A stretch of 24,000 nucleotides of DNA from Glycomyces sp. NPDC021274 (lineage in GTDB: Bacteria; Actinomycetota; Actinomycetes; Mycobacteriales; Micromonosporaceae), in NCBI RefSeq assembly GCF_040641195.1, contig NZ_JBFADC010000005.1, positions 85,866-109,865 on the forward strand, read 5' to 3'. Both the position numbers and the translations under genes were made by a program. The notes under the pieces are model-generated. The model saw only the letters and a program-made list of their open reading frames with translations, ran no database searches and had not been told where the DNA came from. This document shows positions 6,695 through 23,779 of this stretch, piece by piece. The first letter of the stretch is position 1; each line of letters begins with the position of its first letter.

Positions 6695-8629
6695 TCACTC
6701 TTTTCTCGAAGGCCGGTAGACCTCTCCACCGCCGGAACCGCCTCCGCCGGACGCCGCCGTCCCACTTTGACCACCGGCGCCGGCCGGTTGGTCGGCTCCG
6801 GTCTTCTGCTCGGGCAGGGTGTCAGTTCCGCGCGGTGTGCGCACGGTATCGGGGACCTCTTCGGGGCGCGCGTCGTCGCGGCGGCGCGAGACCCGCTCGC
6901 GCTCACGCTCGCGTTCGGCCTCGCGCTCGGATTCGGTGGTGCGTCTGCCGAGGAGCGAATCGGCCACGCCGCCGCCTGCGACGAGTCCGGCGATGCGCCT
7001 TCCTGGTCGTAGGAGCAGCCAAGCGGCGACGCCCAAGAGTCCAATGAGGACGACCTGGAGCCAGACGGGCATCGTGGTGCCCAGGATGCGGCTCGAAGCC
7101 CAGATGTAGATCACCGCAGCCAACGAGAAGATCGCGACGTTGATGATCGCCCCGAGGACCGTGTTGACCAGGCGTTTGAATGGGCCGCCAGCCGGGCGCA
7201 GCAGCGCGATCGTACCGATGATCGGCAGGGCCACGATCGCGAAGCGCACGATCATGAAGCCCAGGATGATCAGGATCGAGGCCACTAGGTCGAAGAGCGA
7301 GAAGAAGATCGCGGTCAGGAGCGCAAGGAAGCCGGTGCCGGTGCGCTCCCAGGCGCGCTGGCCGCTGATGTTGGCGTAGGCCTCAGGGTCCTCGGTCTGG
7401 ATCTGAGCGACCAGGTTGCGCCAGTTCTCTTGCTTCTCCTCGATAAGGTCGTTGCGATACGTCGCGGAGTCCTCTGCTTCGGCTTGCTCTTCCCAGGAGA
7501 AGGCTTGAGCTGCGAAGAGAGCTGGACCGTACTTGTAAGCGGCGTTGGAGTCCGTGACGACGGGGTTTCCCTCGGCGTCCTCAACTACTTTGCCGTCGCG
7601 CTCCTGGAACGTGACTTCTTCGCTCTGGCCGAGCATGGTCCGCAGCCAGTTCTGGTAGAGCACCTGCCCGGAGACGGTGTCGGAGGCGACTACAGCGGCA
7701 GTGCGGGTGTCGACGCAGAAGTCTTCGCCGTTGTTTTCCTTTAGCTCGTCGTACCGCTCCTGGTCCATACCGTCCTCGCGCCAGCAGCCCTCAACCATGT
7801 CATCGTTGATGAGCACGGTGCTGAGGTTCATGCCGATGGTCAAAGCCTGATCCGTGTATTCGGCGGCCTTGACCGGCCAGCGAACCACGGCAGTGACGAG
7901 CACGAGAATGAGCACAGCCCAGGCCACGGTCGTGACCGCGTTGTTCATGTCGGCTTGCTTTGAGCGCCAAAGCAGGTAGAGGCCGATGAGTCCTACGGTG
8001 ACCGCGCCGAAGACCGTGAAGATCTGGCGATACAGGATTTCGGTGCCCTGCTCCATGAACTCGTTGGACCAGCCCCACATGTTGTCGGGCTCCCAGGCGG
8101 CCTGCCGCATCGAGTTCGCGGCCCCGACAGTGGCGACCGATAGGTTGAACTCCATGTTCGCCAAGGCGTTCGCGGTGTCGGCACCGTTGGGGATCGACAC
8201 GGAGTCGACGCAGCCGCCGCCGATCGACATCTCTTGGGAGCCGTACATCGGAAGCTGGTAACCGGCGTACCCGTAGGCGCTATAGGTGCCGATGCCTTCG
8301 CTCTTGTCGAGCCTGCTCGGCTCGGCGAACCAACCCGCCATGCCTGAGTCCGGAGAAGCGGGCTGTGGCGCAGCCTCGCATTGAAGCTCTTGACCTGCGG
8401 GCAGCTCCTCCAGGCAACTCGACCATTCGGTGTGCCACTCGTAATCGGTGCACCCCTCCGCATCACCCTGCGCCCCAGCCATACCCGGTGTGAACACCAA
8501 GGCCCCGGCCGCCGCCGTCAGGGCGAGCAGGACCCGGCCGAGGCGTCCGGCCGCGCGTGCGGCGAGGCCTGGTAGTCGGTGTCGGGTTGATGGAGGAGCA
8601 AGGTCGTGATCGGCGGAGGGGTCGGTCAC
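6695..8629 (-). CDS. polytopic membrane protein, VirB6/TrbL/TcpH-like T4SS channel component
   Basis: GTG 8629 overlaps the ATPase stop (GTGA 8626-8629). The upstream part of the 1405-aa ORF is an Arg/Pro-rich out-of-frame shadow of the ATPase gene. The 644-aa product has a signal peptide, a Cys-containing ectodomain, about 6 TM helices with a loop of about 170 aa, and a C-terminal ERERER and Gly-rich tail. Confidence 0.8.
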   Translation of the reverse strand: MTDPSADHDLAPPSTRHRLPGLAARAAGRLGRVLLALTAAAGALVFTPGMAGAQGDAEGCTDYEWHTEWSSCLEELPAGQELQCEAAPQPASPDSGMAGWFAEPSRLDKSEGIGTYSAYGYAGYQLPMYGSQEMSIGGGCVDSVSIPNGADTANALANMEFNLSVATVGAANSMRQAAWEPDNMWGWSNEFMEQGTEILYRQIFTVFGAVTVGLIGLYLLWRSKQADMNNAVTTVAWAVLILVLVTAVVRWPVKAAEYTDQALTIGMNLSTVLINDDMVEGCWREDGMDQERYDELKENNGEDFCVDTRTAAVVASDTVSGQVLYQNWLRTMLGQSEEVTFQERDGKVVEDAEGNPVVTDSNAAYKYGPALFAAQAFSWEEQAEAEDSATYRNDLIEEKQENWRNLVAQIQTEDPEAYANISGQRAWERTGTGFLALLTAIFFSLFDLVASILIILGFMIVRFAIVALPIIGTIALLRPAGGPFKRLVNTVLGAIINVAIFSLAAVIYIWASSRILGTTMPVWLQVVLIGLLGVAAWLLLRPGRRIAGLVAGGGVADSLLGRRTTESEREAERERERERVSRRRDDARPEEVPDTVRTPRGTDTLPEQKTGADQPAGAGGQSGTAASGGGGSGGGEVYRPSRKE

Positions 8630-11600
8630 TTCGCCTCCCCGGGCGTGGTGTTCAGGTACTCGAGCAGGTTGCGGACCCAGCTGAAGTCGGCGCGGATGCG
8701 CTGCACGCGTCCGTCGACGTCGCGCATCACGAACTCGCGGTAGGGGAGCTTCTGCGTCTCCGCCGCATCCACTTCGGACAGCGAGGCGAGGACGCTCTCG
8801 TAGCCGACGCCTGTGGGCACGCGCAGCAGCTTCAGCGCCTCCTCGGCGACCTCGCGGTCCTCGGCGATGCGGCCGACGAAGACCGTGGAGACGAGGTTCT
8901 GCACGTCGAGCCCGAGGATGTCCTTCGGGTTCTGGCTCGCCACCAGCGCCGCGAGGTTCCATTTGCGGGAGTCGCGGGCCAGGCGCACCAGGAACGAGCG
9001 GCCGGACTTCCAGCCCTCCATGAAGTGCGCCTCGTCGAGGCCGACGAGCTTGCGGCGGTGCATGTCGCCGCCGTAGGCGCGGCGCACGGCCAGGCGGTGC
9101 GCGGTGTGGAGCATCGGCAGGGCCAGGGCCTCTTCGGCGCTCCAGTACTCGCGCTCGATCCCGAGGTCGGGCAGGCGCAGGCCGGACATGGTGATCACCG
9201 TGAGCGCGGTGTCGTCCTCGAGCACGCCCTTGTCCGGGCTGCCGAAGAACAGCTTCGCGAGCGGCATCTCGGCGGTGTCGAGCAGGAGCGCGGCGAGTTC
9301 GGCGCCGTCGCCGGTGGCGTGGTCCTCGGCTTCCTGCAGGGACTCGACGACGTCCTCGATGGTCGAGTCCTCCTCGGCCGGGACGTACCGGGCCGCGTGG
9401 CGCAGGAGCCGCGCCGTGGAGGCCTCGCGCTGGATCTGCGGCGGCAGGAGCATCGCGCAGATGTCCTGCACGAGCATGCGCCGTTCGCTGCGCGCGTTGG
9501 AGATCGCGATGTCGTACTCGCGCTGGCCGTCCGGGGAGTCGTCGTAGTGCTCGCGTTTCGGGGAGGGGATGAGCGCGTACGGGGCGAGCGTCCCGTGCTC
9601 CGAGCCGGTGAGGTTGAGGACCCGCGAGTACGGCTTGAGCTCGGGCATCTCGCACAGCCGCGCGAGCGGGCCCGAAGGGTCGAGGAGCGTGACCTGGACG
9701 CCGCGGCGGGCCGCGAGGTAGCCGATCGCGCCCATGAGCGTGGACTTGCCGCCGCCGGGTTCGGCGACGAAGACCGAGAGGCCGGACTTCTCGCGCACTT
9801 CGGTGGCGAAGTGCATGTCGAGGAAGACCGGGCGGCGGCAGGTGCCGGCGGTGCGGCCGATGAGGTCGCCCCGCTGGTCGCCCACAGTGGACGCGGCCTG
9901 CGGCAGGGCCGCGGCGAAGAGCTTGACGGGCATGCGGCGCACGTAGCCGGTCTGCGCGACCGGCTCGCCCGGGATGAACTCGCGGGCCAGCCAGTCCTGG
10001 TTCTTCGGGTGCTGGAGGCTGATGCGCATGTCCCGCTGGTACATCTGCATCAGCGTGCGGGCGCGCTCCAGGCACTCCTCTTTCGTGTCGGCGGTGACGG
10101 CGATGCGGTGCCAGCCGTGGGCGCGGGCGGCGTCGATCGGCAGGCCGGTGGTCATCTCGTCGCCCACGCCGAGGGCGCGTTCGGCGAGGCGCTGGAGCTC
10201 CGGCGGGGCGTCCATCGCGTGCTCGTCGTAGTCGCGCTGCTGGCTTCGGATGAGGCGCAGGCGGTGGTCGAGGTCGCGGAAGGCCTCGCCGGGGCCGAGG
10301 ATGTCGATGCGGCTCGAGAGTTCGACGGGCCAGGGGCAGCGCTCGTGGAAGTGCAGCCACGGCTCGTGGCGCTGCGGGATCTCCAGCTCCTCCATGCGCC
10401 CCACGGTGAGGACCGCGGTGTGCTTCTCCTCGCCGGTGAGGCGGTTGACGAGCTTCACCGTCGAGCCGTACGGGCTCCGGTAGCGCTCGATCGACTCGGT
10501 GAGGGCCAGGACGTCGCCGGTCTCCCACTCGCTGTTGGAGCCTGAGAGCAGGCGCGGCGGCGACATGCCGAGCGCGACGGAGCGGTAGACGAGCCATTCG
10601 AGTTCGGCGGTGGTGGCGCGGCGGGCGCGTACACCGAAGGAGCCGAGGACCTCGTCGAACTGGAGGCTGCGCTTCTCGATCTTCTCGCGCTCGGAGAGCT
10701 TGGTGCCGCGGCCGAACATGCGGCCGACCTTCTCTCCCAGCTGGTCGAGGGCGCCGCGGCGGCTGAAGGTGATGCCGAGGAAGGTCTCGCCCTCGGCGTG
10801 CGAGAGCTGCTGCAGGTGGCGCTGGGCGGCCACGAGGTGGTCGGCCCAGCTGGTGCCGCCCGGGACGGTGCGCAGCGGGCGCGCGGTGTTGCGGTCGACC
10901 GTGCGGGCCCACTCGTCGGCCGGGAACGGCCGGGTGGTGCGGCGGAGGTGGACGCGCATGCCCGCGAGGCCGGCGAACTGCTCGGCGATGGCGACGATGA
11001 GCGCCTCGCGTTCGAGGTCGGGCCGGAAGGACCAGCGCACGCCGGGCAGCTTGTACCAGGCGGTGACCGAGGCGGGCGTGAACGTGGCGTGCCCGGCGAT
11101 CTCGGTGAGGCTCAGCTCGCGGAGCGGCTGCTTCTCCTTGTCGCGGGGCAGCGGCTTGACGCGGGTCGGCTTGAGCTCGGTCGTCTGCAGCTGGGCGGCC
11201 TCGGCGCGGGCCTGCTTGACCGGGACGAGGTCCTGGCCCGGCACCCGTTGTGCACCCTTTTGTTCAGCTGCTGTACGACCTGTGGAAACATTCCCGCGCC
11301 GCTGGTCAACAGCCTGTGGATAACTCTGTCCCGGCTGTGGATAACTTCCGTTGTGCTGTGGATAACCCTGTGGATTTCCGCTGGTGGGAGCCTGTGGGTA
11401 ACGCTGTTGATACCCCTGTGGATAACTCCCCGGATTCTGTGGATAACCCTGGGGATAAGCCTGTGGACGACTCCCTGACGGAGGGGTCATCGGCGCAGGT
11501 GGCGAAGCGTGTCGGACGGAGTCCGAAGAGGAGGACGGGCGCCCGGGCGCCACCGGTGAGGGCTGGGCGGCCGGGCTCGGCTGCGTGGGGCTCGGAGCGG

Positions 11601-11823
11601 GCGGGCTCGCCGAGCGGTGCGCAATGACCGGCTCGGTGCTCTGCTTCCTGACCGGCTCCGCCCTGCTGTGCCCTTTGACGGGCTCCGCCCGAAATACCGC
11701 GTCCGCCAGCGCGGTGGCGTCGTCGCCGAGGTCGCCGGACTGCCGCTCCCGGTCCCGCACGGGTGCGGGGGGCCGGGGGGCGGAGAACTTGGCGACGGGC
11801 TGTCGGCGATCCTCGCCGCTCAT
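8626..11823 (-). CDS. VirB4/TrbE-class type IV secretion ATPase with long disordered N-terminal extension
   Basis: The 1065-aa product has Walker A VAEPGGGKST (about 9738-9755), Walker B KLVGLDEAHFM (about 9026-9049) and the motif ALVASQNPKD. An N-terminal region of about 200 aa is rich in Pro, Gln, Tyr and Ser. ATG 11823 overlaps the upstream stop (ATGA 11820-11823). Confidence 0.9.
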   Translation of the reverse strand: MSGEDRRQPVAKFSAPRPPAPVRDRERQSGDLGDDATALADAVFRAEPVKGHSRAEPVRKQSTEPVIAHRSASPPAPSPTQPSPAAQPSPVAPGRPSSSSDSVRHASPPAPMTPPSGSRPQAYPQGYPQNPGSYPQGYQQRYPQAPTSGNPQGYPQHNGSYPQPGQSYPQAVDQRRGNVSTGRTAAEQKGAQRVPGQDLVPVKQARAEAAQLQTTELKPTRVKPLPRDKEKQPLRELSLTEIAGHATFTPASVTAWYKLPGVRWSFRPDLEREALIVAIAEQFAGLAGMRVHLRRTTRPFPADEWARTVDRNTARPLRTVPGGTSWADHLVAAQRHLQQLSHAEGETFLGITFSRRGALDQLGEKVGRMFGRGTKLSEREKIEKRSLQFDEVLGSFGVRARRATTAELEWLVYRSVALGMSPPRLLSGSNSEWETGDVLALTESIERYRSPYGSTVKLVNRLTGEEKHTAVLTVGRMEELEIPQRHEPWLHFHERCPWPVELSSRIDILGPGEAFRDLDHRLRLIRSQQRDYDEHAMDAPPELQRLAERALGVGDEMTTGLPIDAARAHGWHRIAVTADTKEECLERARTLMQMYQRDMRISLQHPKNQDWLAREFIPGEPVAQTGYVRRMPVKLFAAALPQAASTVGDQRGDLIGRTAGTCRRPVFLDMHFATEVREKSGLSVFVAEPGGGKSTLMGAIGYLAARRGVQVTLLDPSGPLARLCEMPELKPYSRVLNLTGSEHGTLAPYALIPSPKREHYDDSPDGQREYDIAISNARSERRMLVQDICAMLLPPQIQREASTARLLRHAARYVPAEEDSTIEDVVESLQEAEDHATGDGAELAALLLDTAEMPLAKLFFGSPDKGVLEDDTALTVITMSGLRLPDLGIEREYWSAEEALALPMLHTAHRLAVRRAYGGDMHRRKLVGLDEAHFMEGWKSGRSFLVRLARDSRKWNLAALVASQNPKDILGLDVQNLVSTVFVGRIAEDREVAEEALKLLRVPTGVGYESVLASLSEVDAAETQKLPYREFVMRDVDGRVQRIRADFSWVRNLLEYLNTTPGEAK
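11281..11470 (-). repeat. array of DnaA-box-like 9-mers (TTATCCACA on the minus strand) inside the ATPase CDS
   Basis: There are five exact copies of CTGTGGATAAC on the plus strand, at 11314-11324, 11335-11345, 11356-11366, 11416-11426 and 11437-11447. The minus strand reads GTTATCCACAG. Six degenerate copies lie at 11281, 11369, 11393, 11405, 11450 and 11462. All are in one orientation, with spacings of 12, 21 or 24 bp. They encode (G/S)YPQ peptide repeats using the codons GGT/AGT, TAT and CCA. Confidence 0.85.
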
Positions 11824-12209
11824 AGACGCTCCTCAGTTCGGACGGGCTCCACGAGTGTGGGCCGCAAGCGGATCGAACGGGTCGTGAACGCCGGTATCCG
11901 CTTCTCGTCGCCGGCGTCGCGCGTGTGCTTCCAGTCGGTGAGCAGCGTGCGAACAACCGTGGTCGCGGGGCGGTCGGCGTCGACGTAGCGGAAGATCAGC
12001 GAGGTGGCGACGAGGGCGAGGGAGATCTCGATGGCGGGGAAGAGGTCGACGTCGCCGGTGAAGGTCCAGCGGAGCAGCATGAACAGGGCCAGGAGGGCGG
12101 CGAAGGCCCCGTACTGCCCGTAGGGGAGGTGGACGGGGAGGGTGTACCCGGGAGGGCCGAGGTACAGCAGCCGGGCACGGTAGATGTCGTCGTCGGTGCG
12201 CAAGCGCAT
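11820..12209 (-). CDS. small 2-TM membrane protein, VirB3/PrgI-like by size, topology and position
   Basis: The product is 129 aa. ATG 12209 has a GGAGGA Shine-Dalgarno. Two hydrophobic helices are present (GAFAALLALFMLLRW and FPAIEISLALVATSLIF). The stop overlaps the ATPase start. The functional label is inference. Confidence 0.75.
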   Translation of the reverse strand: MRLRTDDDIYRARLLYLGPPGYTLPVHLPYGQYGAFAALLALFMLLRWTFTGDVDLFPAIEISLALVATSLIFRYVDADRPATTVVRTLLTDWKHTRDAGDEKRIPAFTTRSIRLRPTLVEPVRTEERL

Positions 12210-12253
12210 GGGCGTCCTCCGTCCGGCCTTATTTCAGGGGCGATGTGGGGTTG

Positions 12254-12532
12254 CTAATCCTCGGAGCTGAAGAGGATGTCGACCAGGCCGGTGCCGACGG
12301 CGACCAGGACCACCGCTCCGGCGATGAACGCGATCCCGATGATGGCGATCGTGGAGGAGGTGAGCACGCGGCTGACCTCGCCCTTGTTGGAGCGCGCGAT
12401 GAAGATGAGTCCCAGGATGGCCAAGAGAATCGGGGCGATCTTCGACAGGAAGAATCCGATGATCCCCTGCGTGTTGATCTCGGCGCCGGCCTGGGCGTGC
12501 GCGGCCACCGTCCAGAGTGTCTCACTCATCAT
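12254..12532 (-). CDS. small 2-TM membrane protein (pilin/VirB2-like topology; hypothetical), first gene of the T4SS-like operon
   Basis: The preferred start is ATGATG at 12532/12529, with GGAAGGA upstream, giving 92 aa. Two TM helices are present (IIGFFLSKIAPILLAILGLIFIA and TIAIIGIAFIAGAVVLVAVG). The ORF-track start at GTG 12592 would add 20 codons with atypically low GC3, including a TTA codon, so it is less likely. Confidence 0.65.
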   Translation of the reverse strand: MMSETLWTVAAHAQAGAEINTQGIIGFFLSKIAPILLAILGLIFIARSNKGEVSRVLTSSTIAIIGIAFIAGAVVLVAVGTGLVDILFSSED

Positions 12533-12730
12533 CGTCAGTCCCAATCCTTCCGTCACAGGGGTCACTGCAGTCTCACGTAACGCAATCTTCACTCATGTTT
12601 CTTGTCTCCCAACCCATTGCGGGGTCTGCCCCTCATCATATGCCGCGGTGCTGACAGAACGCACCTTCGTCGGGTCGAAGAGCGACTGCAAGCGCTGACA
12701 CGAGACAGTGAACTTGATTCAGCGGCGGAA

Positions 12731-12771
12731 GGCAATCCGATGGACGCGATCACTCCGTGTCGGCAATCCGA
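12731..12771. repeat. exact 10-bp direct repeat GGCAATCCGA x2 in a divergent intergenic region
   Basis: The copies lie at 12731-12740 and 12762-12771, 31 bp start to start. They sit in the untranslated gap of about 386 bp between the T4SS-like operon and the 12919 gene. Function is unknown, and a chance occurrence is not excluded. Confidence 0.3.
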
Positions 12772-12918
12772 CACTAAACTCGGGGAGGTCGGTGTCCTAC
12801 GCTCGGAGACGCCCCTGGGCCGCACAATAGAGCCCGACGAACCAGCACCGACCGACACAACCGAATCCAGCCCACACCGCCGGCCACCAGGCCGAGCACC
12901 GACCTCGCGGAGACCACC

Positions 12919-13752
12919 ATGGACTACATCGACGACATCGCCGGGCGGCTGACCGCCGCCGCGATCGCCTTCGCCGTCGCCGGTCTCGCCGTCGCCGCCC
13001 TCTCCGCCGCCGCCCTCGGCGGAGTGCGGGCCTCCGAGAAGTGGCCCTCCGCCCCCGTCCCGCGCCTCGGCCGCCCCGCCGTCATGGCCGGCGCACTCCT
13101 CGGCCTCGTCATGTTCGCCCTCGCCGCAGGGCTTTTCTCCTTGGCGCAGTTCGGCACCGGGCTCAACGCGAACCTGCGGGTGCTCCTGGCGGTCGGCGTC
13201 GACCTCGCCGCCCTCGCCCTCGGATTGTGGTTGGTGAGCTACGTTGCGGGGAACGTCGAGATGCGCACGCTCATCAACGTGCCCGACCAGCCGATGAACC
13301 CGCCGCCGATCCCGGTGTCGGGCGACCCGACCCGCTACCAGATGCCGGACTACACGGAGACCCCCATGGAACCCGAGCCGCAGGACTACCCGCACACCGC
13401 ACCGGAACCGCGCCACCCGCAGCAGTACCAGCAGGCCTACTCCGAACCGCGGTCGCCGTACGCGCCCGACACCGCCGCCACCGGCAGCCTCCCCGCCGCC
13501 CGCTCCAAAGTCCCGACCATCCCCACCGACACCCGGCCCGGCTGGGTCTTCCAGGACCGCGGCACCGGCGCCTACTACGCCGCCGTCGCCCAGAGCCGCG
13601 GCGGCATCAGCCTCCTCGCCCTCGACGACTTCACCGTCGCCCGCACCGCCTCCCTCGTCGGCCCCCTCGAACTCGTCGGCTCCGTCGAAGCCACCGTGTG
13701 GCCCTTGGAGAACGGCGAGAACGGCAGGACCGAGGCCGAAGCCGAACAATGA
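12919..13752 (+). CDS. membrane protein with Pro/Gln/Tyr-rich linker (hypothetical)
   Basis: The 277-aa ORF is GC3-rich. It has 3-4 TM helices in the first ~115 aa, then a P/Q/Y-rich linker that uses the usual TAC/CCG codons, then a C-terminal domain of about 90 aa. The antisense 386-aa ORF is a Gly/Arg shadow. Confidence 0.75.
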   Translation: MDYIDDIAGRLTAAAIAFAVAGLAVAALSAAALGGVRASEKWPSAPVPRLGRPAVMAGALLGLVMFALAAGLFSLAQFGTGLNANLRVLLAVGVDLAALALGLWLVSYVAGNVEMRTLINVPDQPMNPPPIPVSGDPTRYQMPDYTETPMEPEPQDYPHTAPEPRHPQQYQQAYSEPRSPYAPDTAATGSLPAARSKVPTIPTDTRPGWVFQDRGTGAYYAAVAQSRGGISLLALDDFTVARTASLVGPLELVGSVEATVWPLENGENGRTEAEAEQ

Positions 13753-13765: not shown

Positions 13766-14052
13766 TCAGTCGGCCGCGGGCGCGCAGGTGATCCTCAGCA
13801 GATAGGGGTCGAGGTCGTTCTCGGCGTCGACGGCCCCGATGCCCGCTCGCCGCAGGACCGTCTGCACGCGTGCGGTGGCCGCCGTCAGATCGTCGTCGAG
13901 GTCGAACTCGTGCCGACCGGCGCCTGCGGCTCGGCGGTCGCCGGCCCGGAGGTTCGCATTCGACTCGAGGCCGATCTCGCCGCCGAAAGCGCGTCGGACA
14001 CCAGCCCCGCAACCCGCTCGAGCTTCTTCGGCGAAGCCTGCTCAAGACTCAT
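13766..14052 (-). pseudogene. frameshifted paralogue of the deaminase immunity gene (orphan immunity remnant)
   Basis: Translation from ATG 14052 gives MSLEQASPKKLERVAGLVSDAL, which matches MSLDQASDDELERVRGLVADAL at the start of 16530-16919. After about 13985 the homology continues only in the -1 frame: DDDLTAATARVQTVLRRAGIGAVDAENDLDPYLLRITCAPAAD matches DDEAQAVNARLQAALRAAGIESEDAENDFAPYLLRIVSAPGTA, ending at TGA 13768-13766. The middle part is also shorter. An alternative upstream ATG at 14121 overlaps the preceding stop (TGATG). Confidence 0.6.
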
Positions 14053-14120: not shown

Positions 14121-14354
14121 TCAGCGCGTGGTCGGATCGTCCATGACCCGGCTGTACAGCTCGGCGCACGCCTCGTCCTCGGTCGCGAAGACCTCCTCGT
14201 AAGCCCGCTCGCCGCGCTGCGAATAGTAGACGGCCCAGCCGTTCTCGCGCTGCTCCAGCGTATGGCTCTCGTTCGGCAGCCCGCCCTCGAGCCAGTAGGT
14301 GTTCTCGCGTACGCCCTCGGCTTCGAGCAGGCGGGCGAGGTCGTTCTTCTTCAT
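14121..14354 (-). CDS. putative immunity protein for the TNT-like toxin
   Basis: The product is 77 aa. ATG 14354 has an AAGGTG Shine-Dalgarno and lies 10 nt after the toxin stop. The protein is small, acidic and cytoplasmic in appearance (MKKNDLARLLEAEGVRENTYWLEGG...). The role is inferred from position only. Confidence 0.7.
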   Translation of the reverse strand: MKKNDLARLLEAEGVRENTYWLEGGLPNESHTLEQRENGWAVYYSQRGERAYEEVFATEDEACAELYSRVMDDPTTR

Positions 14355-14364: not shown

Positions 14365-14880
14365 TTACAGTCGAGTGAGCTTCGAATACCCGGACGCATC
14401 AGGTTTCAGCAGGTCTTTTACCGCGGACGGCAGCTTGTACTGCGTCCCCATGCCCGGCTCGCCGAACCACGGCGCGATGGTCGCCTCGTCCACCTCGATG
14501 TCCTCGTTCAGCCGGAACCTGCTGTACGGCGACGACCTGCCTTCGGGCGGCATCGCCCGCTGCTCGAACGGGATCCCGTCGGGCGAGGTGTAGTCGCCCC
14601 AGTCGCTGCCGTACCGGTCGATGATCGTGCCCTTGGGCAGGGTGACCTTCCGGGAAGGGCCGAGCGCGCCCGCATCCGGCGGCCAGTTGAGGTCGCCCCG
14701 GGGCAGGCCCGGAGCGGGCGGCGTGTCCCGGTCGCCATGGCCGGGACCGGGATTGGAGCCTATCGGTGAGGGGCCGGTCATCCACTGCTTGTGCAGATCG
14801 GCCATGGTGGGCGCGGACGAGGCCGACGAGCGGCGGGCGCTGCTGCGGGGCAGGCCGCCTGGATGCTTTCCAGTCGTCAT
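14365..14880 (-). CDS. stand-alone TNT-domain (tuberculosis necrotizing toxin-like) NAD+ glycohydrolase toxin
   Basis: The product is 171 aa. The C-terminal ~95 aa read IIDRYGSDWGDYTSPDGIPFEQRAMPPEGRSSPYSRFRLNEDIEVDEATIAPWFGEPGMGTQYKLP. This follows the TNT/DUF4237 pattern as I recall it: DRyG..G.f.sp.g.p...RalPp, then iapwFgqpGgg.Qy. The N-terminal ~75 aa are Pro/Gly/Ser-rich and low in complexity. Confidence 0.85.
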   Translation of the reverse strand: MTTGKHPGGLPRSSARRSSASSAPTMADLHKQWMTGPSPIGSNPGPGHGDRDTPPAPGLPRGDLNWPPDAGALGPSRKVTLPKGTIIDRYGSDWGDYTSPDGIPFEQRAMPPEGRSSPYSRFRLNEDIEVDEATIAPWFGEPGMGTQYKLPSAVKDLLKPDASGYSKLTRL

Positions 14881-15046
14881 GGGGGTGCGGACCTTCCGTG
14901 GGGGAACCCGGAAGCGGGGTTATCCAGCAAACTAGACCAGCGGTGCCAGTACCACCGTCGTGGCCGCCGATTCCGTGCGCACCAGCCCTGGCGGGCCGGT
15001 GCTAGCCTGACCGCACAGCACCACCGCACCCCCGAGGAGGCTTGAC

Positions 15047-15394
15047 GTGTTCGGTCTCGTGCAAGTCGAAAGCCAGGCGATACGCAGCGCTTCCAGCCGG
15101 ATGAAGCAGTTCGCGAGCCAGGCGAAGAGCCTTCCCCAGAACGCGGTCCAGGCCGCGCAGCGAGCCGAGAGCGCCAACCGGGGATTCATGTGCGCCGACG
15201 GCGCCAAGGACTTCGCCGACGACCTCGAAGAGGACATGAAGGACCTCAACGAGCACCTGGAGGACACCGCCGAAGTCCTCGAGGACATCGCCGACCACTG
15301 GGACCGCGCGGACGAGGACGCCGCCGCCGACTTCAAGCCGATCGGCTCCGAACTGAGCGGCTTCAACGTCCCCACCATCCCCGGAGGAGCGTGA
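15047..15394 (+). CDS. small acidic helical ESX/WXG-like protein (hypothetical)
   Basis: GTG 15047 lies 6 nt after GGAGG. The 115-aa product is predicted all-helical with an HWDRAD turn in place of a clear WxG. It is the first gene of the plus-strand operon. Confidence 0.7.
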   Translation: MFGLVQVESQAIRSASSRMKQFASQAKSLPQNAVQAAQRAESANRGFMCADGAKDFADDLEEDMKDLNEHLEDTAEVLEDIADHWDRADEDAAADFKPIGSELSGFNVPTIPGGA

Positions 15395-15398
15395 CGCG

Positions 15399-15929
15399 AT
15401 GCCGACCTTCCAGCAGTGCCTCGACGCCAACCCCGCCCAGCTCATGACCCTCGGCGCCTCCATCGCCGGGGCCGCCGCGCAGCTGACCCAGCTCGGCGCG
15501 ACCTACGGCCAGACCGTCGCCGGCCTCGCCGCCTCCTGGCAGGGCAAGGACTACCAGGAACTCGTCAAATGGTCCACAGAGGTCGGTCTGTTCATCGGCC
15601 GCAGCGACGCCGCGATGCTCACCTGCGCCGGCGCCCTCGAAGGCACCGGCGCCGCCCTCATGGCCACCTGCTTCGCCATGAAGGCCACCAAGCAGGCCGC
15701 CGAAGCCGTCGGCTACAAGGTCCTGCCTACCCCGTTCGTGATCCTCGGCCCCAGCCAGTGGTCCCAGGTCTCCTCGGCCGGACCCGCCGCCCCGGCGGTC
15801 CTCGCCGCCTACCAGTCCGGCGCGATCGCGTTCACCACCGCGCTGGTCTCCATGTACACCGCGGTCATCGCCCAGGACACCGCCGGGTACGCGATCATCC
15901 GCACCGCCCTCGCCCTGAGCCCGTCGTAG
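15399..15929 (+). CDS. WXG100-like protein with C-terminal extension
   Basis: The 176-aa product has a helix-turn-helix with W-x-G (LAASWQGKDYQEL) and then a hydrophobic helical extension rich in Ala, Gly and Thr. A GGAGGAG Shine-Dalgarno lies upstream. Confidence 0.8.
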   Translation: MPTFQQCLDANPAQLMTLGASIAGAAAQLTQLGATYGQTVAGLAASWQGKDYQELVKWSTEVGLFIGRSDAAMLTCAGALEGTGAALMATCFAMKATKQAAEAVGYKVLPTPFVILGPSQWSQVSSAGPAAPAVLAAYQSGAIAFTTALVSMYTAVIAQDTAGYAIIRTALALSPS

Positions 15930-15941
15930 AAAGCCCGGCCC

Positions 15942-16502
15942 ATGACGACGAGCAAGCACGGCAGTCCGCTCCCCAGCAGCAATGCCCGCAAGCCGGTGCA
16001 CGCCAACGCGACCACACTTGCGACCGCACCGAACTTCCGCCGCACCATCGGAACCCGCGTCGGCTACGGAGAGACGCCGCTCGGACGGCATGTCGCCGAC
16101 ATGCGGCAGGTGCGGCACCGACCGCCGCCGCCCACGCTCGACCCGGGCATGGGCCGAAACATCGCGGCTGCACGGCTCAGCGACGGCAGCGTGATCGACG
16201 GCGTGAGCGGCAACCCCCACGGATGCTCCGAGAACGAGATCCAGGGCAAGCTCGACGCGCTCAACAACGGGCGGACACCACCGTTGAAGATCGAGGAGCT
16301 CTATACGGAGCGCCAGCCGTGCTGCAACTGCGAGAACCTGATGAACACCAAGCACTCCGGAGCCGACGTGAACTGGACTGTCGAACACTTCGACGTGCCG
16401 GGTACGCCCTCTACTCCCGAGGAGGCGAAGGCACTCCGTCAGCTGAAGAACCTCGAAACGGCCGAGCTGAAGCGCGCGGCGTACACGTACCATGGCATCT
16501 GA
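15942..16502 (+). CDS. stand-alone nucleic-acid deaminase-fold toxin (CxE ... PCxxC)
   Basis: The product is 186 aa. The C-terminal ~110 aa carry the zinc-deaminase signature HGCSENE, then 28 aa, then QPCCNCE. This is compact, like the bacterial toxin deaminases (SCP1.201/DddA-like clade suspected). The N-terminal ~75 aa are low in complexity. An immunity-like gene follows. Confidence 0.8.
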   Translation: MTTSKHGSPLPSSNARKPVHANATTLATAPNFRRTIGTRVGYGETPLGRHVADMRQVRHRPPPPTLDPGMGRNIAAARLSDGSVIDGVSGNPHGCSENEIQGKLDALNNGRTPPLKIEELYTERQPCCNCENLMNTKHSGADVNWTVEHFDVPGTPSTPEEAKALRQLKNLETAELKRAAYTYHGI

Positions 16503-16529
16503 TCCCGAACAGCGAGAAGAGGTCCCTCG

Positions 16530-16919
16530 GTGAGTCTTGACCAGGCGTCCGACGACGAATTGGAACGGGTGCGCGGCCTGGTGGCGGACGCGTTGGAGTC
16601 GGCGGGCATCCGCTGGCAGTTGCATGAGAAGCCGCAGTCGTACGCGGTCGCGCAAGTGACCATCGACTACGGCCGGGACTCCGGCCGCGGCGTGTTCGTC
16701 TCCTGGGAGCAGAGCCTCGCCGAGCACGAGTCGCTCATGCGCCTCGTCCGCGAAGGCGACCACATGAACCCGCGCATCCTCGCCGCAGACGACGAGGCCC
16801 AAGCAGTCAACGCGCGGCTCCAGGCGGCGCTGCGCGCGGCCGGCATCGAATCCGAGGACGCCGAGAACGACTTCGCCCCCTACCTGCTGCGAATCGTCTC
16901 CGCCCCGGGCACCGCCTAG
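16530..16919 (+). CDS. putative deaminase immunity protein
   Basis: GTG 16530 is the first start codon after the toxin stop, 27 nt downstream. The product is a 129-aa acidic cytoplasmic protein. A decayed paralogue lies at 13766-14052. The role is inferred from position. Confidence 0.75.
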   Translation: MSLDQASDDELERVRGLVADALESAGIRWQLHEKPQSYAVAQVTIDYGRDSGRGVFVSWEQSLAEHESLMRLVREGDHMNPRILAADDEAQAVNARLQAALRAAGIESEDAENDFAPYLLRIVSAPGTA

Positions 16920-16944
16920 TACCCGGCCACGACTGGAGCTCCAC

Positions 16945-17655
16945 ATGACCCCCGCTGAAGACCCCAAGCCGTTCGAGTTCGCGGTGCCCGAGGACTACGA
17001 GCGGCACATCGACGAGGCGCGGGCCGCGCTCGACGTCGTGCCCCGCAACGAGAACTGGGAGAACGCCCAGCGCGTCCTCGCCGACCCGCCCAGCCGTGAA
17101 GCGATCGAGGCCGCACAGCGCGAAGCCGCCGAGGCCATGGCGATGCTCGCCGCGTTCCAGCAGGCCCGCCACACCGGCTACGACCCCGACCAGACCACCA
17201 AGGTCGTCATCGACGCCGCCGGGGAACTGCGCGAACTCGAATTCGGCGTCGACGCCGTCCGCCTGGGCAACCACGGCCTCGCCGACGCCATCGGCCTCGC
17301 CTGGGCCGCGGCACAGGACGCGCGCGCCGAGAGCCAAGGCGACTACACCTCGCGCACCGGCGCGCTCGGCGGCGGCAACACCCCCGCCGAGCAGGTGCTC
17401 GCCGACATCGAGTTCGCCCTCAGCGCCCGCGAGCACGAGCGCTTCGGGGCCACCACCGAGGACGGGCTCACCAAACTCGCCGTCAACCTGCGCGGACGCC
17501 TCACCGAGGTGGTGTTCCTGCAGAACAACGTCCTCAACCTCACCGACCGCCACACCCTCGCCGAACAGCTCACCGCCGCCGTGCAGCGGGCGCAGTCGGA
17601 CGCGGCGGCCGTCGTCGGCGAGATCGGCGCCGCCCACTACGCCCGGTTGGGATAG
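16945..17655 (+). CDS. tandem YbaB/EbfC-like domain protein
   Basis: The 236-aa product has two YbaB-type cores: TKVVIDAAGELRELEFGVDAVRLGNHGLADAIGLAWAAAQ and LTKLAVNLRGRLTEVVFLQNNVLNLTDRHTLAEQLTAAVQRAQ. Confidence 0.8.
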   Translation: MTPAEDPKPFEFAVPEDYERHIDEARAALDVVPRNENWENAQRVLADPPSREAIEAAQREAAEAMAMLAAFQQARHTGYDPDQTTKVVIDAAGELRELEFGVDAVRLGNHGLADAIGLAWAAAQDARAESQGDYTSRTGALGGGNTPAEQVLADIEFALSAREHERFGATTEDGLTKLAVNLRGRLTEVVFLQNNVLNLTDRHTLAEQLTAAVQRAQSDAAAVVGEIGAAHYARLG

Positions 17656-17772: not shown

Positions 17773-18531
17773 GTGACCGATCCCGGCCAGACTTTCACCG
17801 ACATCGATGAATATGTGACGCTGCGCCTCGACGACGACAAGATCATCGTCGCGGTGACGGCCGCCGGTTTCCGCCAACCCCCGAGCACCATCGCACGCCT
17901 GGTCACCGAACTCGCCGCCCGGCTGCCCCGCCCCGGCGCCGAAGCCGACGCCGCGGTCGCCAACGGCATCAAGGCCATCGGCGAACTCCAGGACGCCGCC
18001 GCCACCGGCGGCTACGAGGCCTTCGCCGCCATGATGCGCGGGCGCCTCGGCATCGGCGGCGTCGCCAGCCCGATCGGCCCCAACACCCTCAGCCGCGACC
18101 CCGAGCACGACCGCGCCCTCGCCGGCCACCTCGACGGCGTCCTCAAGACCATGCGCGCCGCCCAGACCGCCCGCACCGGGCCCGCCGCCGACCGCGACCA
18201 CCTCGACGTCAAAGTCCACAGCGACGAAGGCGACCTCAGCGTCACCGCCAGCGCCGAACGCGCCGTCGCCGCCGTCTGGATCGGACCCACCGCCCGCCAG
18301 CGGGGCCTCGACGGCCTCGGCCGGGCGCTCACCGACCTCATCGCCCGCGCCCGCGACGAACTGCGCCGCGCAGCAGAGCAGCGCGCCCGGGACACCCTCC
18401 CCGCCGACCTCGCCCGCAAGACCGAGCAGGCCCCCGCCGCCGCCGACCGCGCCACCCGCGCCGCCGGGGACATGGCCGAACGCGTCCAGCAGCTCAGCGA
18501 CAGCATCCAGCGAAAGGCAGGACCCCGATGA
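17773..18531 (+). CDS. hypothetical protein with a possible N-terminal YbaB-like core and an Ala/Arg-rich helical C-terminus
   Basis: GTG 17773 has only a weak Shine-Dalgarno. The 252-aa ORF has high GC3 and contains VTLRLDDDKIIVAVTAAGFRQPPSTIARLVTELAA near its N-terminus. The stop overlaps the next start (ATGA 18528-18531). Confidence 0.65.
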   Translation: MTDPGQTFTDIDEYVTLRLDDDKIIVAVTAAGFRQPPSTIARLVTELAARLPRPGAEADAAVANGIKAIGELQDAAATGGYEAFAAMMRGRLGIGGVASPIGPNTLSRDPEHDRALAGHLDGVLKTMRAAQTARTGPAADRDHLDVKVHSDEGDLSVTASAERAVAAVWIGPTARQRGLDGLGRALTDLIARARDELRRAAEQRARDTLPADLARKTEQAPAAADRATRAAGDMAERVQQLSDSIQRKAGPR

Positions 18532-18833
18532 CCCGCGTCTTCGACAGCGAATTCGTCCGGCAGCTCGGCGCCGACATCGAGGCCAAGGTGGTCCCGATCC
18601 TGGAGAGCACCGACGAGTACCTCCAGGTCATGAGCGAGATCGACCGCGGCCTCTACACCACCGTCACCCTCCCCATGGCCGCCGCCTACTCCATCGCCAC
18701 GTCCACCGTCACCGAGTCCATGGCCGGAGCCGCCGCATGCTTCCGCGAGGTCAACGCCGCACTTGACGCGTGCGCGCAGGATATGGACGACACCGACGAA
18801 GCCTGCGCCACCGCGTTCGGCGCGAACGGATAG
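18528..18833 (+). CDS. small helical ESX-like protein (hypothetical)
   Basis: The product is 101 aa, acidic and predicted helical. The gene is translationally coupled to the upstream gene. Confidence 0.7.
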   Translation: MTRVFDSEFVRQLGADIEAKVVPILESTDEYLQVMSEIDRGLYTTVTLPMAAAYSIATSTVTESMAGAAACFREVNAALDACAQDMDDTDEACATAFGANG

Positions 18834-18845: not shown

Positions 18846-19817
18846 ATGTCAACGGGGCAGAGCATCATGGAGGCCGGGGAGGCGATGGCCGGTGAGTACA
18901 ACGCCGTCATCAAGGGCTGCGCCATCGGCATCGCCGCGCCCGCCATCGCCTTCGGGCTCTCCACGCAGGCGCTCGCCACCGTCGTCTACCTCAACCAGTG
19001 CAACCCCGGCGACATCATGAAAGGCGCCGGCGCCTGGATCGCCTTGGCGGAGAAGAACCTCGAAGCGGTCGAAGCGCTCCAGGCCGAGGTCGACAAGGTC
19101 GACGACGAGCACTGGTCGGGCGCCGACGCCGAAGCGTTCAAAGCCGCCTCCGGGGACGTGAAGGCCCAGCTCACCCAGCTCGCCGTCAACGCCTACCTCG
19201 TCGGCGCGCAGCTGCTCGCGTTCGCGGTGATGCTCACCGTCTTCTGGATGTTCCTCACCGCCGCCACCGCCATCATGGCCGTCTACTTCGGCGCGTACAT
19301 CGCGGCCCTGTCGGGCGTCGTCAGCGCCGTCGGCGCCCCCGCGATCATGGCCAGCGCGAACGTCACGGCCGCCTCCCTGCTGGCCACCGCCAAGAGCTTC
19401 GAGGCCACCCTCATTTCCATCTCGACCGGGTGCGCGGCGATCACCGGTGCGATGTCGGTGTTCACGTTCGCGTTCCAGAAGTCCCAGGGCAACCCGGTCT
19501 CGCCGCTCGACATCGCCGGCGCGGGCCTGGCCAACATGCTCGAGGGCCTGCTCGTGTACGGCATCAACGCCGCCACGATGACCTCGGGCGGGCGGCACGC
19601 CACGGGGGCGCTGGCCAGCGGCTGGGCGCTCGCGGGGCACCTCACCCAGGCCGCCTCGACGTTCTTCCCCGCGTACAAGGGCGAGGACGACGGATGGGAG
19701 GCCGGGTTCGACGGCGGCGGGCCGCTGCTCGGCGTCCCCGACTCGGCGCTCAACTGGCTGTGGGAGGACAACGCGCCCGAGTCGATGAAGAACCCCGAAG
19801 ACCTGGACTGGTCCTGA
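18846..19817 (+). CDS. WXG100-like domain fused to a multi-helix hydrophobic region
   Basis: The 323-aa product has W-x-G at DDEHWSGADAEAF within a helix-turn-helix. About 150 aa of hydrophobic helices follow (LLAFAVMLTVFWMFLTAATAIMAVYFGAYIAAL...), then an acidic, Trp-rich tail. GGAGCGGG lies upstream of the ATG. Confidence 0.8.
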   Translation: MSTGQSIMEAGEAMAGEYNAVIKGCAIGIAAPAIAFGLSTQALATVVYLNQCNPGDIMKGAGAWIALAEKNLEAVEALQAEVDKVDDEHWSGADAEAFKAASGDVKAQLTQLAVNAYLVGAQLLAFAVMLTVFWMFLTAATAIMAVYFGAYIAALSGVVSAVGAPAIMASANVTAASLLATAKSFEATLISISTGCAAITGAMSVFTFAFQKSQGNPVSPLDIAGAGLANMLEGLLVYGINAATMTSGGRHATGALASGWALAGHLTQAASTFFPAYKGEDDGWEAGFDGGGPLLGVPDSALNWLWEDNAPESMKNPEDLDWS

Positions 19818-21260: not shown

Positions 21261-22862
21261 ATGAGCGACAACTCGAGTGCGTCCTACCCTGGACTCGACG
21301 CCGCCGCGCCGGCCATGGGTGCCCCCGCGTTCGGCAGTGCCGCGCCGCCCGCGGCGCCTCCGCCGCCCCCGCCTCCCGCTGACGAGACGGTCGCCCCGCC
21401 GGTGGCCGAGGAGAGCCTCCCCGCTGGCCGCACGCCCTGCTCGAACCCCAACTGCGGCAACCCGACCGAGCACCCCGCCGAACTGGACTGGCAGCAGCTC
21501 GTCTCGGCCGTGCCCGTCACGGGCCAGCTGTACCGCCTGCGCCCCAAGGAAGCCGGGATGGCGTTCCCGACCGAGGCCGACTTCCGCGCGGCCGTCGCCG
21601 CCGTGCGGCCCGAGCGCGCCGACGCGCACTCGCTCGAGCACCTGCGCAACGCCTGGAGCGAGAACGTGACCGGGCGGATCGCCGACTGGTCCGAGCAGAT
21701 CAAGTCCAACCTGAACGAGCTCGCCGAAGGCTGGTCGGGCACCGACTTCGAGGCCTTCGAGGCCACATGCACGCAGACGCGCGAACTCGTCGACGACCTG
21801 GTCGACGACATCGACGCCACCGTCGCCAACCTGCAGTCCACTGAGGAGGCGCTCTACTCGATCCAAGGCGGCAGCTCGGGCGAGATCCCGTACCCCGCAC
21901 CGCAGTTCTGGATCGACGGCGACTGGCACAGCTGGGTGTCGGTGCATGTGCGGCCCGCGTGGTGGCACGGCGACTGCATCGAGTACACCTGCCAGGACGC
22001 CGAGCACGTGCTCGCCCTCGGCGGCGCCGAACCCGAGCTCGCCACCGAGATCATCGACTACATCGACGAGCGCATCCTCCACTACATCGACTACTACGCC
22101 AGCCCCGTCAACATCGAGCGCGACGGCCTCGACCCCACGAAGGGCCTCACAGTCGTGGAGGCCAAGGAGCTCGCCGTCGCCGACGCGATGGAGCACTACG
22201 GGACCCTCGTCGACCAGAGCTGGGGCGCGTACGACGCCCGCCAAGCAGAGTCCAATGAGGACATTCAGCAGCGGAGCACCGACACCGATGCCGAGGACCG
22301 CTCCGTGCGGACCGTGCACAGCGACAAGGAGTACCCGCCGTCCGCCGACCCGGCGTACATGAACCTCGAACCCCCGCCGATGGAGCAGCCCAGCGGCAGC
22401 GCGCAGCCCATGGCCAGCGAAGACCCCTCGCTCGACCCGCCCGTCGGCGAGACCCCCGCCGAACCGGTCGACCCAGCGGCGCCCGACGATCCCGCGGAGG
22501 ACGACGGCGAGGAGCCGAGCGGCGGCCTGGCGAGCGGCGGCGCGGGCACGGGCACCGCGGGCGGCTTCGGCGGAGGAGGCGGCGGCGGTTTCGGCGCTGG
22601 TGCCGTACCTGCAAGTGCCACTTCGGGTTCCGGCGCTTCGATGGGCGGCGCCCTCGGCGGCGCGGCCCTCGGCGCGGCAGCGGGCGGTGCCGCGGCCGCC
22701 ACGGGATCGCGCGGCTCCGCGGCCATGATGAGCGGTGGCGGCGGGGCGGGAGCCGGGCGCGGCATGAACATGGACGACAAGGACCGCGAACCGGACGTCG
22801 ACCTGGTCGAGGACGAGAACATGTGGGGCTTCGTCAACGAGGACGACGACCCCTACGCTTAA
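21261..22862 (+). CDS. large mosaic WXG-like protein (Pro-rich N-terminus, WXG helix pair, Cys/Trp-rich domain, Gly/Ala-rich tail)
   Basis: The product is 533 aa, with a GAGGTG Shine-Dalgarno upstream. It contains PPPPPPP and CSNPNCGNPTEH near the N-terminus and W-x-G at LAEGWSGTDFEAF. A Gly/Ala/Ser low-complexity region of about 90 aa follows (about 22500-22770). The C-terminus is acidic (EDENMWGFVNEDDDPYA). Confidence 0.8.
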   Translation: MSDNSSASYPGLDAAAPAMGAPAFGSAAPPAAPPPPPPPADETVAPPVAEESLPAGRTPCSNPNCGNPTEHPAELDWQQLVSAVPVTGQLYRLRPKEAGMAFPTEADFRAAVAAVRPERADAHSLEHLRNAWSENVTGRIADWSEQIKSNLNELAEGWSGTDFEAFEATCTQTRELVDDLVDDIDATVANLQSTEEALYSIQGGSSGEIPYPAPQFWIDGDWHSWVSVHVRPAWWHGDCIEYTCQDAEHVLALGGAEPELATEIIDYIDERILHYIDYYASPVNIERDGLDPTKGLTVVEAKELAVADAMEHYGTLVDQSWGAYDARQAESNEDIQQRSTDTDAEDRSVRTVHSDKEYPPSADPAYMNLEPPPMEQPSGSAQPMASEDPSLDPPVGETPAEPVDPAAPDDPAEDDGEEPSGGLASGGAGTGTAGGFGGGGGGGFGAGAVPASATSGSGASMGGALGGAALGAAAGGAAAATGSRGSAAMMSGGGGAGAGRGMNMDDKDREPDVDLVEDENMWGFVNEDDDPYA

Positions 22863-22901
22863 CGCACCCCGTCCCTGAAACCTTCGGAAAGGAACCCTGA
22901 G

Positions 22902-23240
22902 ATGCCAACGCGCGCTTTCGATCCGGCCGCACTCGAGCGCTACCGGCAGTTCCTCGCCGGACTCCTCGAAGAACTCGAGAACGAGATCATCCCGTCCCTC
23001 AGCGACGGCGACCTGAAGAAGGCCCCCGCCTTCGGCACCGCCCCCGGCGCGGCCGAGAACGCCGCCATCGAGTACGCCGACTTCCACGCCACCACCTGGC
23101 GAAACCTCCAGTACCTCCGCGGCACCCTCCACGGCCTCATCAACGGCCTCCAAACCGCCATCGACACCGGCGGCACCGTCGACCAGCAGGTCGCCACCGA
23201 CATCGCGAGCCTCACCGGGGGCGACGACCTCTACGCCTGA
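22902..23240 (+). CDS. small helical ESX-like protein (hypothetical)
   Basis: The product is 112 aa, with a GGAAAGGAA Shine-Dalgarno upstream. Its N-terminus MPTRAFDPAALERY resembles those of 15399 (MPTFQQCLDANPAQL) and 23780 (MPSFDIDPETFRQ). Confidence 0.7.
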   Translation: MPTRAFDPAALERYRQFLAGLLEELENEIIPSLSDGDLKKAPAFGTAPGAAENAAIEYADFHATTWRNLQYLRGTLHGLINGLQTAIDTGGTVDQQVATDIASLTGGDDLYA

Positions 23241-23249
23241 TCCTGACGC

Positions 23250-23274: not shown

Positions 23275-23375
23275 CGTGAGTGCTGCTGGGGCACAAGTGA
23301 TCGTTGAACCCGGACATTTGCCATGTCGGTATATGATGAGTGATCCTCAGATACCACAAGGCAACTGGAGATCAC

Positions 23376-23777: not shown

Positions 23778-23779
23778 CC

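Follow-up and report, generated by a model that had tools for sequence, protein, structure and literature searches.

The 24,000-nucleotide stretch of the Glycomyces sp. NPDC021274 genome analysed here (contig NZ_JBFADC010000005.1, positions 85,866 to 109,865 of the forward strand; hereafter the window) carries two toxin genes of unrelated families whose products begin with closely similar peptides of 17 residues, which we call the leader. The two genes are on opposite strands, each is followed by a presumed immunity gene, and between them lie genes for a 115-residue EspC-like protein and a 176-residue WXG-like protein. The toxin and immunity features are as follows; L-numbers denote related loci (genomes and metagenome contigs), P-numbers denote related proteins, and sizes are in amino acids (aa).

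14365–14880, minus strand: TNT-domain (NAD+ glycohydrolase-type) toxin, 171 aa (PF14021, E=9.9e-28, residues 80–159)
14830–14880, minus strand: leader coding region of the TNT toxin, MTTGKHPGGLPRSSARR, matching the motif confined to toxin N-termini
14121–14354, minus strand: presumed TNT immunity gene, 77 aa from MKKNDLARLL, directly downstream of the TNT gene; the longest open reading frame (ORF) extends to 14399
15942–16502, plus strand: XOO_2897-type deaminase toxin, 186 aa (PF14440, E=1.5e-7, residues 71–148)
15942–15992, plus strand: leader coding region of the deaminase toxin, MTTSKHGSPLPSSNARK, matching the motif confined to toxin N-termini
16530–16919, plus strand: presumed deaminase immunity gene, 129 aa; homologues follow the deaminase gene in L001, L015 and L019–22

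A first-pass annotation of this DNA had placed both toxin genes here and counted ten matching residues at their N-termini, and these statements hold. Pfam assigns the TNT and XOO_2897 domains (the TNT toxin also matches fungal NADases in the PDB, at ~2e-12), and 10 of the 17 N-terminal residues are identical, or 9 of 16 when the initiating methionine is set aside. When the N-terminal region of the deaminase was shuffled 1,000,000 times, at least nine non-Met identities arose just 8 times, and the next-best among 666 pairs of window ORF N-termini has 5 identities. Both ATGs are the first start codon past an in-frame stop, which lies 13 codons upstream for the TNT gene and 4 for the deaminase gene. 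The choice of ATG 15942 as a genuine start is likewise sustained, in that the orthologues share this Met and it is located 13 nucleotides past the stop codon of the upstream gene.

Several properties of the two proteins bear on how they might be addressed. First, neither contains a 19-mer with a Kyte-Doolittle hydropathy above 1.6, and they therefore have no Sec/Tat signal and no transmembrane (TM) helix. Second, neither has a WXG or LXG match in Pfam, nor any Pfam match outside the toxin domain. Third, the C-termini (...GYSKLTRL in the TNT toxin and ...AAYTYHGI in the deaminase) have no YxxxD/E motif, so that all three absences reported in the first-pass annotation are reproduced by hydropathy, Pfam and the C-terminal sequences. 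Fourth, the leader matches no described family and is predicted to be disordered. In an AlphaFold2 (AF2) model of the TNT toxin, residues 1–21 and 35–60 have a predicted local distance difference test (pLDDT) score below 50, a short helix is present at residues 26–35 (10 residues), and the confident domain begins at about residue 70; a helical hairpin or bundle of the targeting type is absent from this model, as are WXG and LXG matches in Pfam.

The segments between leader and catalytic domain had been described as dissimilar linkers of about 60 residues, a view that needs revision, as they consist mostly of family-specific pre-toxin segments. Residues ~28–55 of the TNT toxin (DLHKQWM...GDRDTPP) and ~29–70 of the deaminase (FRRTIG.RV.YG...) are conserved in leaderless relatives, and the truly variable spacer that follows the leader is just 10–14 residues long and rich in Ser, Ala, Pro and Gly. 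As read from the sequences, the toxin architecture is leader, spacer, family-specific pre-toxin segment and catalytic domain, followed by the toxin's own presumed immunity gene. The deaminase family is small, with 14 representatives in an exhaustive phmmer search, and elsewhere its members are fusions with Rhs/Hint modules or with TM-helix N-termini.

The leader family and its toxin cassettes

Further proteins with the leader are present in related genomes, on three toxin folds and in at least five Glycomyces species genomes as well as several metagenome samples, which answers one of the checks proposed with the first-pass annotation. The consensus is M-T-T-x-K-H-x(1-3)-L-P-x-S-S-x-R-[RK], and the three folds – TNT, XOO_2897 deaminase and YwqJ deaminase – are unrelated in Pfam. 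The YwqJ-like deaminase is encoded at L005 10553–11185 (PF14431, E=5.8e-9) and starts MTTGKHDGPLPSSSRRR. Orthologues of the TNT toxin (MPTGKHPGGLPSSSPRR and MTTSKHSSSLPKSSARK) and of the deaminase (MTTSKHGSPLPSSSARK, MPTTNHGALPRSGERR and MSTPKQSPLPSSSARR) keep the leader, and there are 11 distinct leader-bearing N-termini in the DNA of the examined loci, in addition to those of P0002, P0005, P0012 and P0015. All seven of the related loci from species-representative genomes belong to Glycomyces, with 80–92% nucleotide identity to the window in conserved genes. A loose form of the motif, [KN][HQ].{0,4}[LV]P.[SKG]..[RK][RKN], matches nothing but toxin N-termini in 275 kb scanned in six frames. 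The leader had been placed at the extreme N-terminus, and this is true of most copies; in P0016 the motif begins 6 residues past Met1. The TNT leader of P0005 and L002 is nearer to the leader of the window deaminase than to that of the window TNT toxin, and the leader is therefore a unit independent of toxin type. Neither it nor the module in which it occurs is described in the S8-PTS paper (PMC9424270) or the T7SS-variants paper (PMC11217815).

The DNA encoding these leaders is considerably more varied than the peptide. The invariant Leu, Pro, Ser and Arg residues are specified by 2–4 different codons across the copies, with synonymous sets such as CTG/CTC/CTT, CCC/CCG/CCA and CGC/CGG/AGG, and the start codon may be ATG or GTG. 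Moreover, the DNA 5′ of the toxin start differs from cassette to cassette. The differing codons and unrelated upstream DNA therefore point to selection on the peptide and not to a leftover duplication, an origin that the first-pass annotation had itself raised and that does not hold. A similarity confined to 17 residues of biased composition might be put down to chance, or to the remnant of a local duplication. Against this stand the shuffle probability of ~8e-6, the 5 identities of the next-best among 666 pairs, the presence of the leader on three toxin folds in several genomes, and flanking DNA that is not duplicated, and we consider this explanation effectively refuted. No repeats flank the cassettes, except for an orphan immunity remnant described below.

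A different possibility is that the conservation acts on the mRNA, as a translation-initiation region or a small RNA (sRNA) site, with the peptide being incidental. It is in keeping with this that the conserved block begins at the start codon in most copies. However, the invariant residues use different synonymous codons, the upstream regions are unrelated, the start codon is not constant, the motif of P0016 is displaced 6 codons downstream, and there is no Rfam match, all of which make a role at the mRNA level very improbable. An RNA element or integration site was rejected, there being no Rfam match and no tRNA in the window. Stop-codon read-through that would fuse the 176-aa WXG-like protein to the toxin was also rejected; the frame is not conserved, and the TNT gene is on the opposite strand. 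The 176-aa gene and the toxin gene share a frame in the window (15399–15944) and in L005 (10001–10555), with TAG and a few codons between them; this arrangement is not seen in L001 or L015, and because the frames differ there a read-through fusion is not a conserved feature.

Comparison of closely related loci reveals how the toxin genes are exchanged. The sequences of L005 and L015 agree at 97% as far as the stop codon that ends the 176-aa gene; homology breaks there and resumes further on, again at 97%. Beyond the 176-aa gene L005 has the YwqJ toxin and a 154-aa gene, whereas in L015 the place is taken by an XOO deaminase and its 121-aa gene, after which comes an orphan version of the 154-aa gene (84% identical). 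The segment corresponding to window positions 15945–16967, containing the deaminase and its immunity gene, is missing from the equivalent slot in L002, where both the TNT and the deaminase cassette lie upstream of the EspC-like gene and run on the opposite strand. The leader, the toxin and the immunity gene travel as one cassette, and the cassettes sit in two slots, one directly downstream of the EspC-like/WXG-like pair and the other divergently upstream of it.

The gene downstream of each toxin tracks the toxin type, being 77–92 aa after TNT, 121–129 aa after the XOO deaminase and 154 aa after YwqJ; an immunity role is presumed for all of these. The presumed TNT immunity gene is directly after the TNT gene also in L002, L013, L019 and L023–26, and paralogues form arrays after the TNT gene in L007; its product has no match in Pfam or the PDB. 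Orphan copies of the deaminase immunity gene are present in L005 and L015, and the window contains a degraded one:

13778–14052, minus strand: degraded orphan copy of the deaminase immunity gene (inverted repeats I1 and I6; tblastn)

This remnant is split between two frames with its middle missing (60% identity over 40 aa and 70% over 20 aa to the 129-aa protein, by tblastn). Located downstream of the TNT toxin and its presumed immunity gene, it is lacking in the metagenome contig L019, which is otherwise syntenic.

The polymorphic-toxin logic that had been proposed for this locus is supported by the three folds, the presumed immunity genes, the swaps between near-identical flanks and the orphan immunity genes. 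Three hallmarks of such systems are seen, namely a shared N-terminus on unrelated toxins, a co-varying downstream gene of presumed immunity function, and displacement that leaves orphans; no recognised trafficking domain (Sec, LXG, WXG, RHS or PAAR) was found in the toxins by Pfam and hydropathy. From these sequence comparisons we infer that the leader is a selectively maintained peptide on a toxin cassette, and that the cassettes constitute a polymorphic toxin family so far found in Glycomyces only.

Two other kinds of protein were noted as well. The L001 locus encodes, within 12014–13035, a 244-aa small-alarmone-synthetase (SAS)-like toxin (PDB 8vx3, E=1.2e-27) that resembles the C-terminus of XopAD/skwp type III secretion system (T3SS) effectors (XopAD C-terminus, E=1.8e-30), has no Pfam match, and is followed by a presumed 91-aa immunity gene; the SAS-like domain is possibly an additional catalytic domain of the leader family. 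There are also leaderless proteins of 260–264 aa (L001 10996–11790, L003 1346–2128, and P0023) in which the N-terminal half is like the XOO_2897 deaminase (E=7e-11) and the C-terminal half is like the deaminase immunity protein, with its GVxVSW and FAPYxL motifs. Judging from this composition, they may be toxin-immunity fusions or decoys.

Candidate helper genes and the proposed role of the leader

The cassettes are embedded in a group of conserved genes, which in the window are the following:

15047–15394, plus strand: EspC-like helical hairpin protein, 115 aa (T7SS_ESX_EspC PF10824, E=7.5e-9)
15399–15929, plus strand: WXG-like protein, 176 aa (weak WXG100 matches, E=0.016 and E=0.0059)
16945–17655, plus strand: YbaB-like protein, 236 aa (YbaB_DNA_bd, E=3.5e-10), kept in all type A modules
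17773–18531, plus strand: second YbaB-like protein, 252 aa (YbaB_DNA_bd, E=0.0019, below cutoff), syntenic in all modules
18528–18833, plus strand: 101-aa conserved protein with no Pfam match, paired with the next gene (synteny in L001, L002, L005, L007, L008 and L015)
18846–19817, plus strand: protein with a PPE/WXG-like N-terminal domain, 323 aa (PPE E=3.8e-5; WXG100 E=0.0049)

The set of EspC-like, WXG-like, YbaB-like, 101-aa and PPE-like genes recurs in each related module; the EspC-like/WXG-like pair immediately precedes the deaminase slot and is transcribed away from the TNT slot. Alignment of the EspC-like proteins reveals an invariant W85-x-x-x-D89, in which W replaces the Y of the YxxxD/E motif of type VII secretion systems (T7SS); the hairpin turn N-x-G-F-M is also invariant, and the C-terminal tail L..F.VP.I.GG is conserved. 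The 176-aa protein, directly upstream of the toxin slot, has an invariant W47-x-G49 and a highly conserved C-terminal half, and in the scan of species-representative genomes it was seen in Glycomyces only. A PDB profile search with this family returned EsxR only, at an E-value (0.6) that is not significant. The 323-aa PPE-like protein has hydrophobic 19-mers at residues 20–47 and 112–171.

This gene context suggests a function, and with a confidence a little above even we propose a role for the leader as a short linear signal, for export or recognition, that couples small toxins to ESX-type helpers. The disordered leader would be read as a short linear recognition signal and would dock toxins that have no helical trafficking domain onto helper proteins of the module, and the docked toxins would then leave with these helpers by the type VII (ESX-type) route. 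Candidate helpers are the EspC-like and WXG-like proteins, as a putative heterodimer in which a T7SS-type signal would be assembled from its WxG and WxxxD halves, and/or the YbaB-like proteins.

A more divergent, paralogous module is informative here. In L006 and L007 the WXG protein is 51–52% identical, and the TNT toxins (155–156 aa; within L006 6954–8825 and L007 10524–13243) begin with another conserved leader, MP..NRPFKH.PG..W, so that each module type goes with its own leader type. Alignment shows that the two module types differ in their 176-aa protein chiefly at the N-terminal hairpin. Partner-specific docking of the leader, if it occurs, fits this module-wise divergence of hairpin and leader.

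Nonetheless, there are several points that weigh against an export signal read by ESX-type helpers. First, EccC and other T7SS core genes are absent within 10 kb of any module. Second, the WXG100 matches of the 176-aa protein fall below the Pfam and NCBIfam cutoffs, and a single-sequence AF2 model of it is poor (pLDDT 42). Third, the motif is not always typical in position or strength: P0016, a 44%-identical deaminase, keeps it but 6 residues in (MAKDNP-TSKHEGNALPRSSQRR), and the 244-aa SAS-like toxin of L001 has merely a weak version, VPAGKLPRKGNKSG. Fourth, the leader family is small and so far belongs to one genus, Glycomyces. A profile of the 42-aa leader-plus-spacer alignment found nothing at E≤10, although it is too short for a database of 5.8 billion sequences, and a degenerate leader DNA pattern had 4 matches in metagenome contigs, all low-GC false positives in a collection evidently without the source contigs.

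The absence of a secretion machine from the immediate operon also raises the question of whether the leader acts inside the producing cell, as a degron, as a protease or kinase site, or as a segment that holds the toxin in an inactive or unstable state before the toxin pairs with its immunity protein. Its disorder, its richness in Ser, Thr, Lys and Arg, and its conservation at the peptide level would all agree with such intracellular control. Three observations would be left unexplained, however: the constant placement of the cassettes between WXG/EspC-like and YbaB/PPE-like genes, the cassette turnover with orphan immunity genes, and the fusion of the same toxin domains to Rhs/Hint export modules elsewhere. 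We regard intracellular control as unlikely.

The proposed export role can be compared with several known systems, of which the closest documented analogue is the esxF-esxE-cpnT-ift operon of M. tuberculosis, where a WXG pair, toxin and immunity gene are encoded together and the WXG pair is needed for export of the TNT toxin (PMC7810871). The gene order of helical-hairpin pair, toxin and immunity gene (the last presumed in Glycomyces) is the same at the deaminase slot, the TNT gene being divergent from the pair. Also shared are the TNT domain of one Glycomyces toxin, the WxG motifs on the pair, and the location of the ESX-type helper genes away from a core secretion machine. The differences are nevertheless substantial. 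CpnT has an N-terminal channel domain of ~440 aa, whereas the Glycomyces toxins are 171–219 aa in total and have only the 17-aa leader; the Glycomyces WXG-like protein, of 176 aa, has an additional conserved C-terminal half; the presumed TNT immunity protein has no detectable similarity to any solved structure; and the toxin slot is polymorphic, accommodating an NADase and two deaminase families. Unlike M. tuberculosis, Glycomyces is not a mycolate (mycomembrane-bearing) bacterium.

LXG-type polymorphic toxins also have a conserved N-terminus, interchangeable C-terminal toxins, immunity genes (presumed here) and orphan immunity genes, and small helical partner genes adjoin the toxin in both cases; the LXG-Lap targeting complexes of Bacillota are a functional parallel to the proposed docking. 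There the conserved part is a helical domain of 110–200 aa, in contrast to the disordered peptide of ~17 residues in Glycomyces. Short linear secretion signals are familiar in other settings, such as the C-terminal signal of EsxB, to which EccC binds, and the disordered N-terminal leaders of T3SS effectors and of the payloads of extracellular contractile injection systems and Photorhabdus virulence cassettes (eCIS/PVC). Like these, the Glycomyces leader is a short, disordered, transferable tag on unrelated cargo; its motif and position are unlike those of the EsxB signal, and there are no eCIS or T3SS genes in the locus. To our knowledge, Gram-positive polymorphic toxins are addressed by folded domains of 100–200 residues (LXG, WXG) or by Sec signals. 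The leader is probably a tag of a kind not recognised before, with a narrow known scope of one genus. If the proposed export role is correct, toxin cassettes of merely ~170 residues would be pluggable into a secretion module, small actinobacterial effectors missed by domain-based mining could be found through the leader motif, and the leader would offer a compact tag with which to probe cargo recognition by WXG-like, EspC-like and YbaB-like helpers.

The adjacent Tcp-like module

A second candidate apparatus is encoded next to the toxin module:

4989–12592, minus strand: six-gene Tcp-like Gram-positive type IV secretion system (T4SS) module, also present at L001 41–7654 and L005 565–7997

Its genes encode an M23 hydrolase (Peptidase_M23, E=1.8e-24), a 179-aa protein, a CD3337/EF1877-like membrane protein (E=4.8e-8, below cutoff), a TcpF/VirB4-like ATPase (AAA_10, E=4.6e-23; TcpF, E=6.6e-23, far short of the curated cutoff) and two small membrane proteins. 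The ATPase is ~1040–1080 aa in length with a long N-terminal extension. The module adjoins the toxin module in four Glycomyces genomes (the window, L001/L004, L002 and L005), and a homologous six-gene module is found on Streptomyces and Rhodococcus plasmids, with ~36% identity in the ATPase; the plasmid modules adjoin FtsK/SpoIIIE and ParA genes. As in conjugative T4SSs of the Tcp/pCW3 type, a TcpF/VirB4-like ATPase, a CD3337/EF1877 (TcpH-class) membrane protein and a peptidoglycan hydrolase are encoded together, but the Glycomyces module differs in that no coupling protein or relaxase was detected: none of coupling ATPase, FtsK/SpoIIIE and relaxase was found in the window ORFs scanned, in the syntenic loci, or in the L001/L014 gene tables.

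These genes raise the possibility that the leader is a translocation signal for this module, which would have been recruited as a toxin exporter without its DNA-processing genes. The adjacency in four genomes favours this, as does the failure to find a coupling ATPase, FtsK/SpoIIIE or relaxase in the window or those loci, unlike the situation in the Streptomyces plasmid module. On the other hand, no T4SS-like gene lies within 10 kb of the toxin modules of L006, L007, L008 and L013; tblastn found no homologues of the WXG-, YbaB- and PPE-like proteins on the plasmids that bear the T4SS module; and the T4SS signals known to us are C-terminal. The synteny is a weak sign of a functional link, since these are congeneric species with DNA 80–92% identical. 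Because of the close relationship, the modules without T4SS genes and the lack of plasmid homologues of the helpers, a link between the T4SS and the toxins is a minority hypothesis, and we consider it decidedly unlikely that the leader addresses the toxins to this machine. More elaborately, the leader might be the substrate signal of a domesticated conjugation machine, deprived of relaxase and coupling protein, that would act with the WXG-like, EspC-like and YbaB-like proteins in a hybrid T4SS/ESX-accessory delivery of small toxins between actinomycete cells; we know of no Tcp-type T4SS that uses N-terminal toxin leaders, and this scenario we hold to be improbable and largely speculative.

Other toxin N-termini and flanking genes

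Several minor features of the toxin modules and the window deserve mention. The TNT toxins of the divergent L006/L007 module are followed by arrays of 3–7 immunity-like paralogues of ~79–191 aa, and L008 contains a WXG-gene remnant and one immunity-like gene only. A third N-terminal type, found on both TNT and deaminase toxins, consists of a TM-like helix and then a Pro/Gly-rich region (MRRLLLFAALIAATGLFRR and MRRILKLLLVIGIGLL). It is represented at L013 9064–10878 (Glycomyces luteolus), where the toxin gene is directly after the PPE-like gene, and by P0003, P0020 and P0021. For P0004 the annotated start, MKAIEAAKPRLAIT, probably lies too far downstream, and the motif AIEAAKPRLAI is present as tandem repeats in P0003.

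Within the window, positions 2517–4765 (minus strand), between the T4SS-like module and a left-hand WXG/YbaB gene set, encode three proteins: an extracytoplasmic function (ECF)-type sigma factor of 176 aa, one of 254 aa that matches no family, and one of 262 aa whose matches are weak and metzincin-like; these genes may regulate the locus. The left-hand set (34–1372) comprises a WXG100_2-like 237-aa ORF and two YbaB proteins of 95 and 109 aa. The right flank (21261–24000) encodes proteins of 533 aa (with a WXG100 domain), 112 aa and 145 aa (YbaB-like), and the start of a further helical protein.

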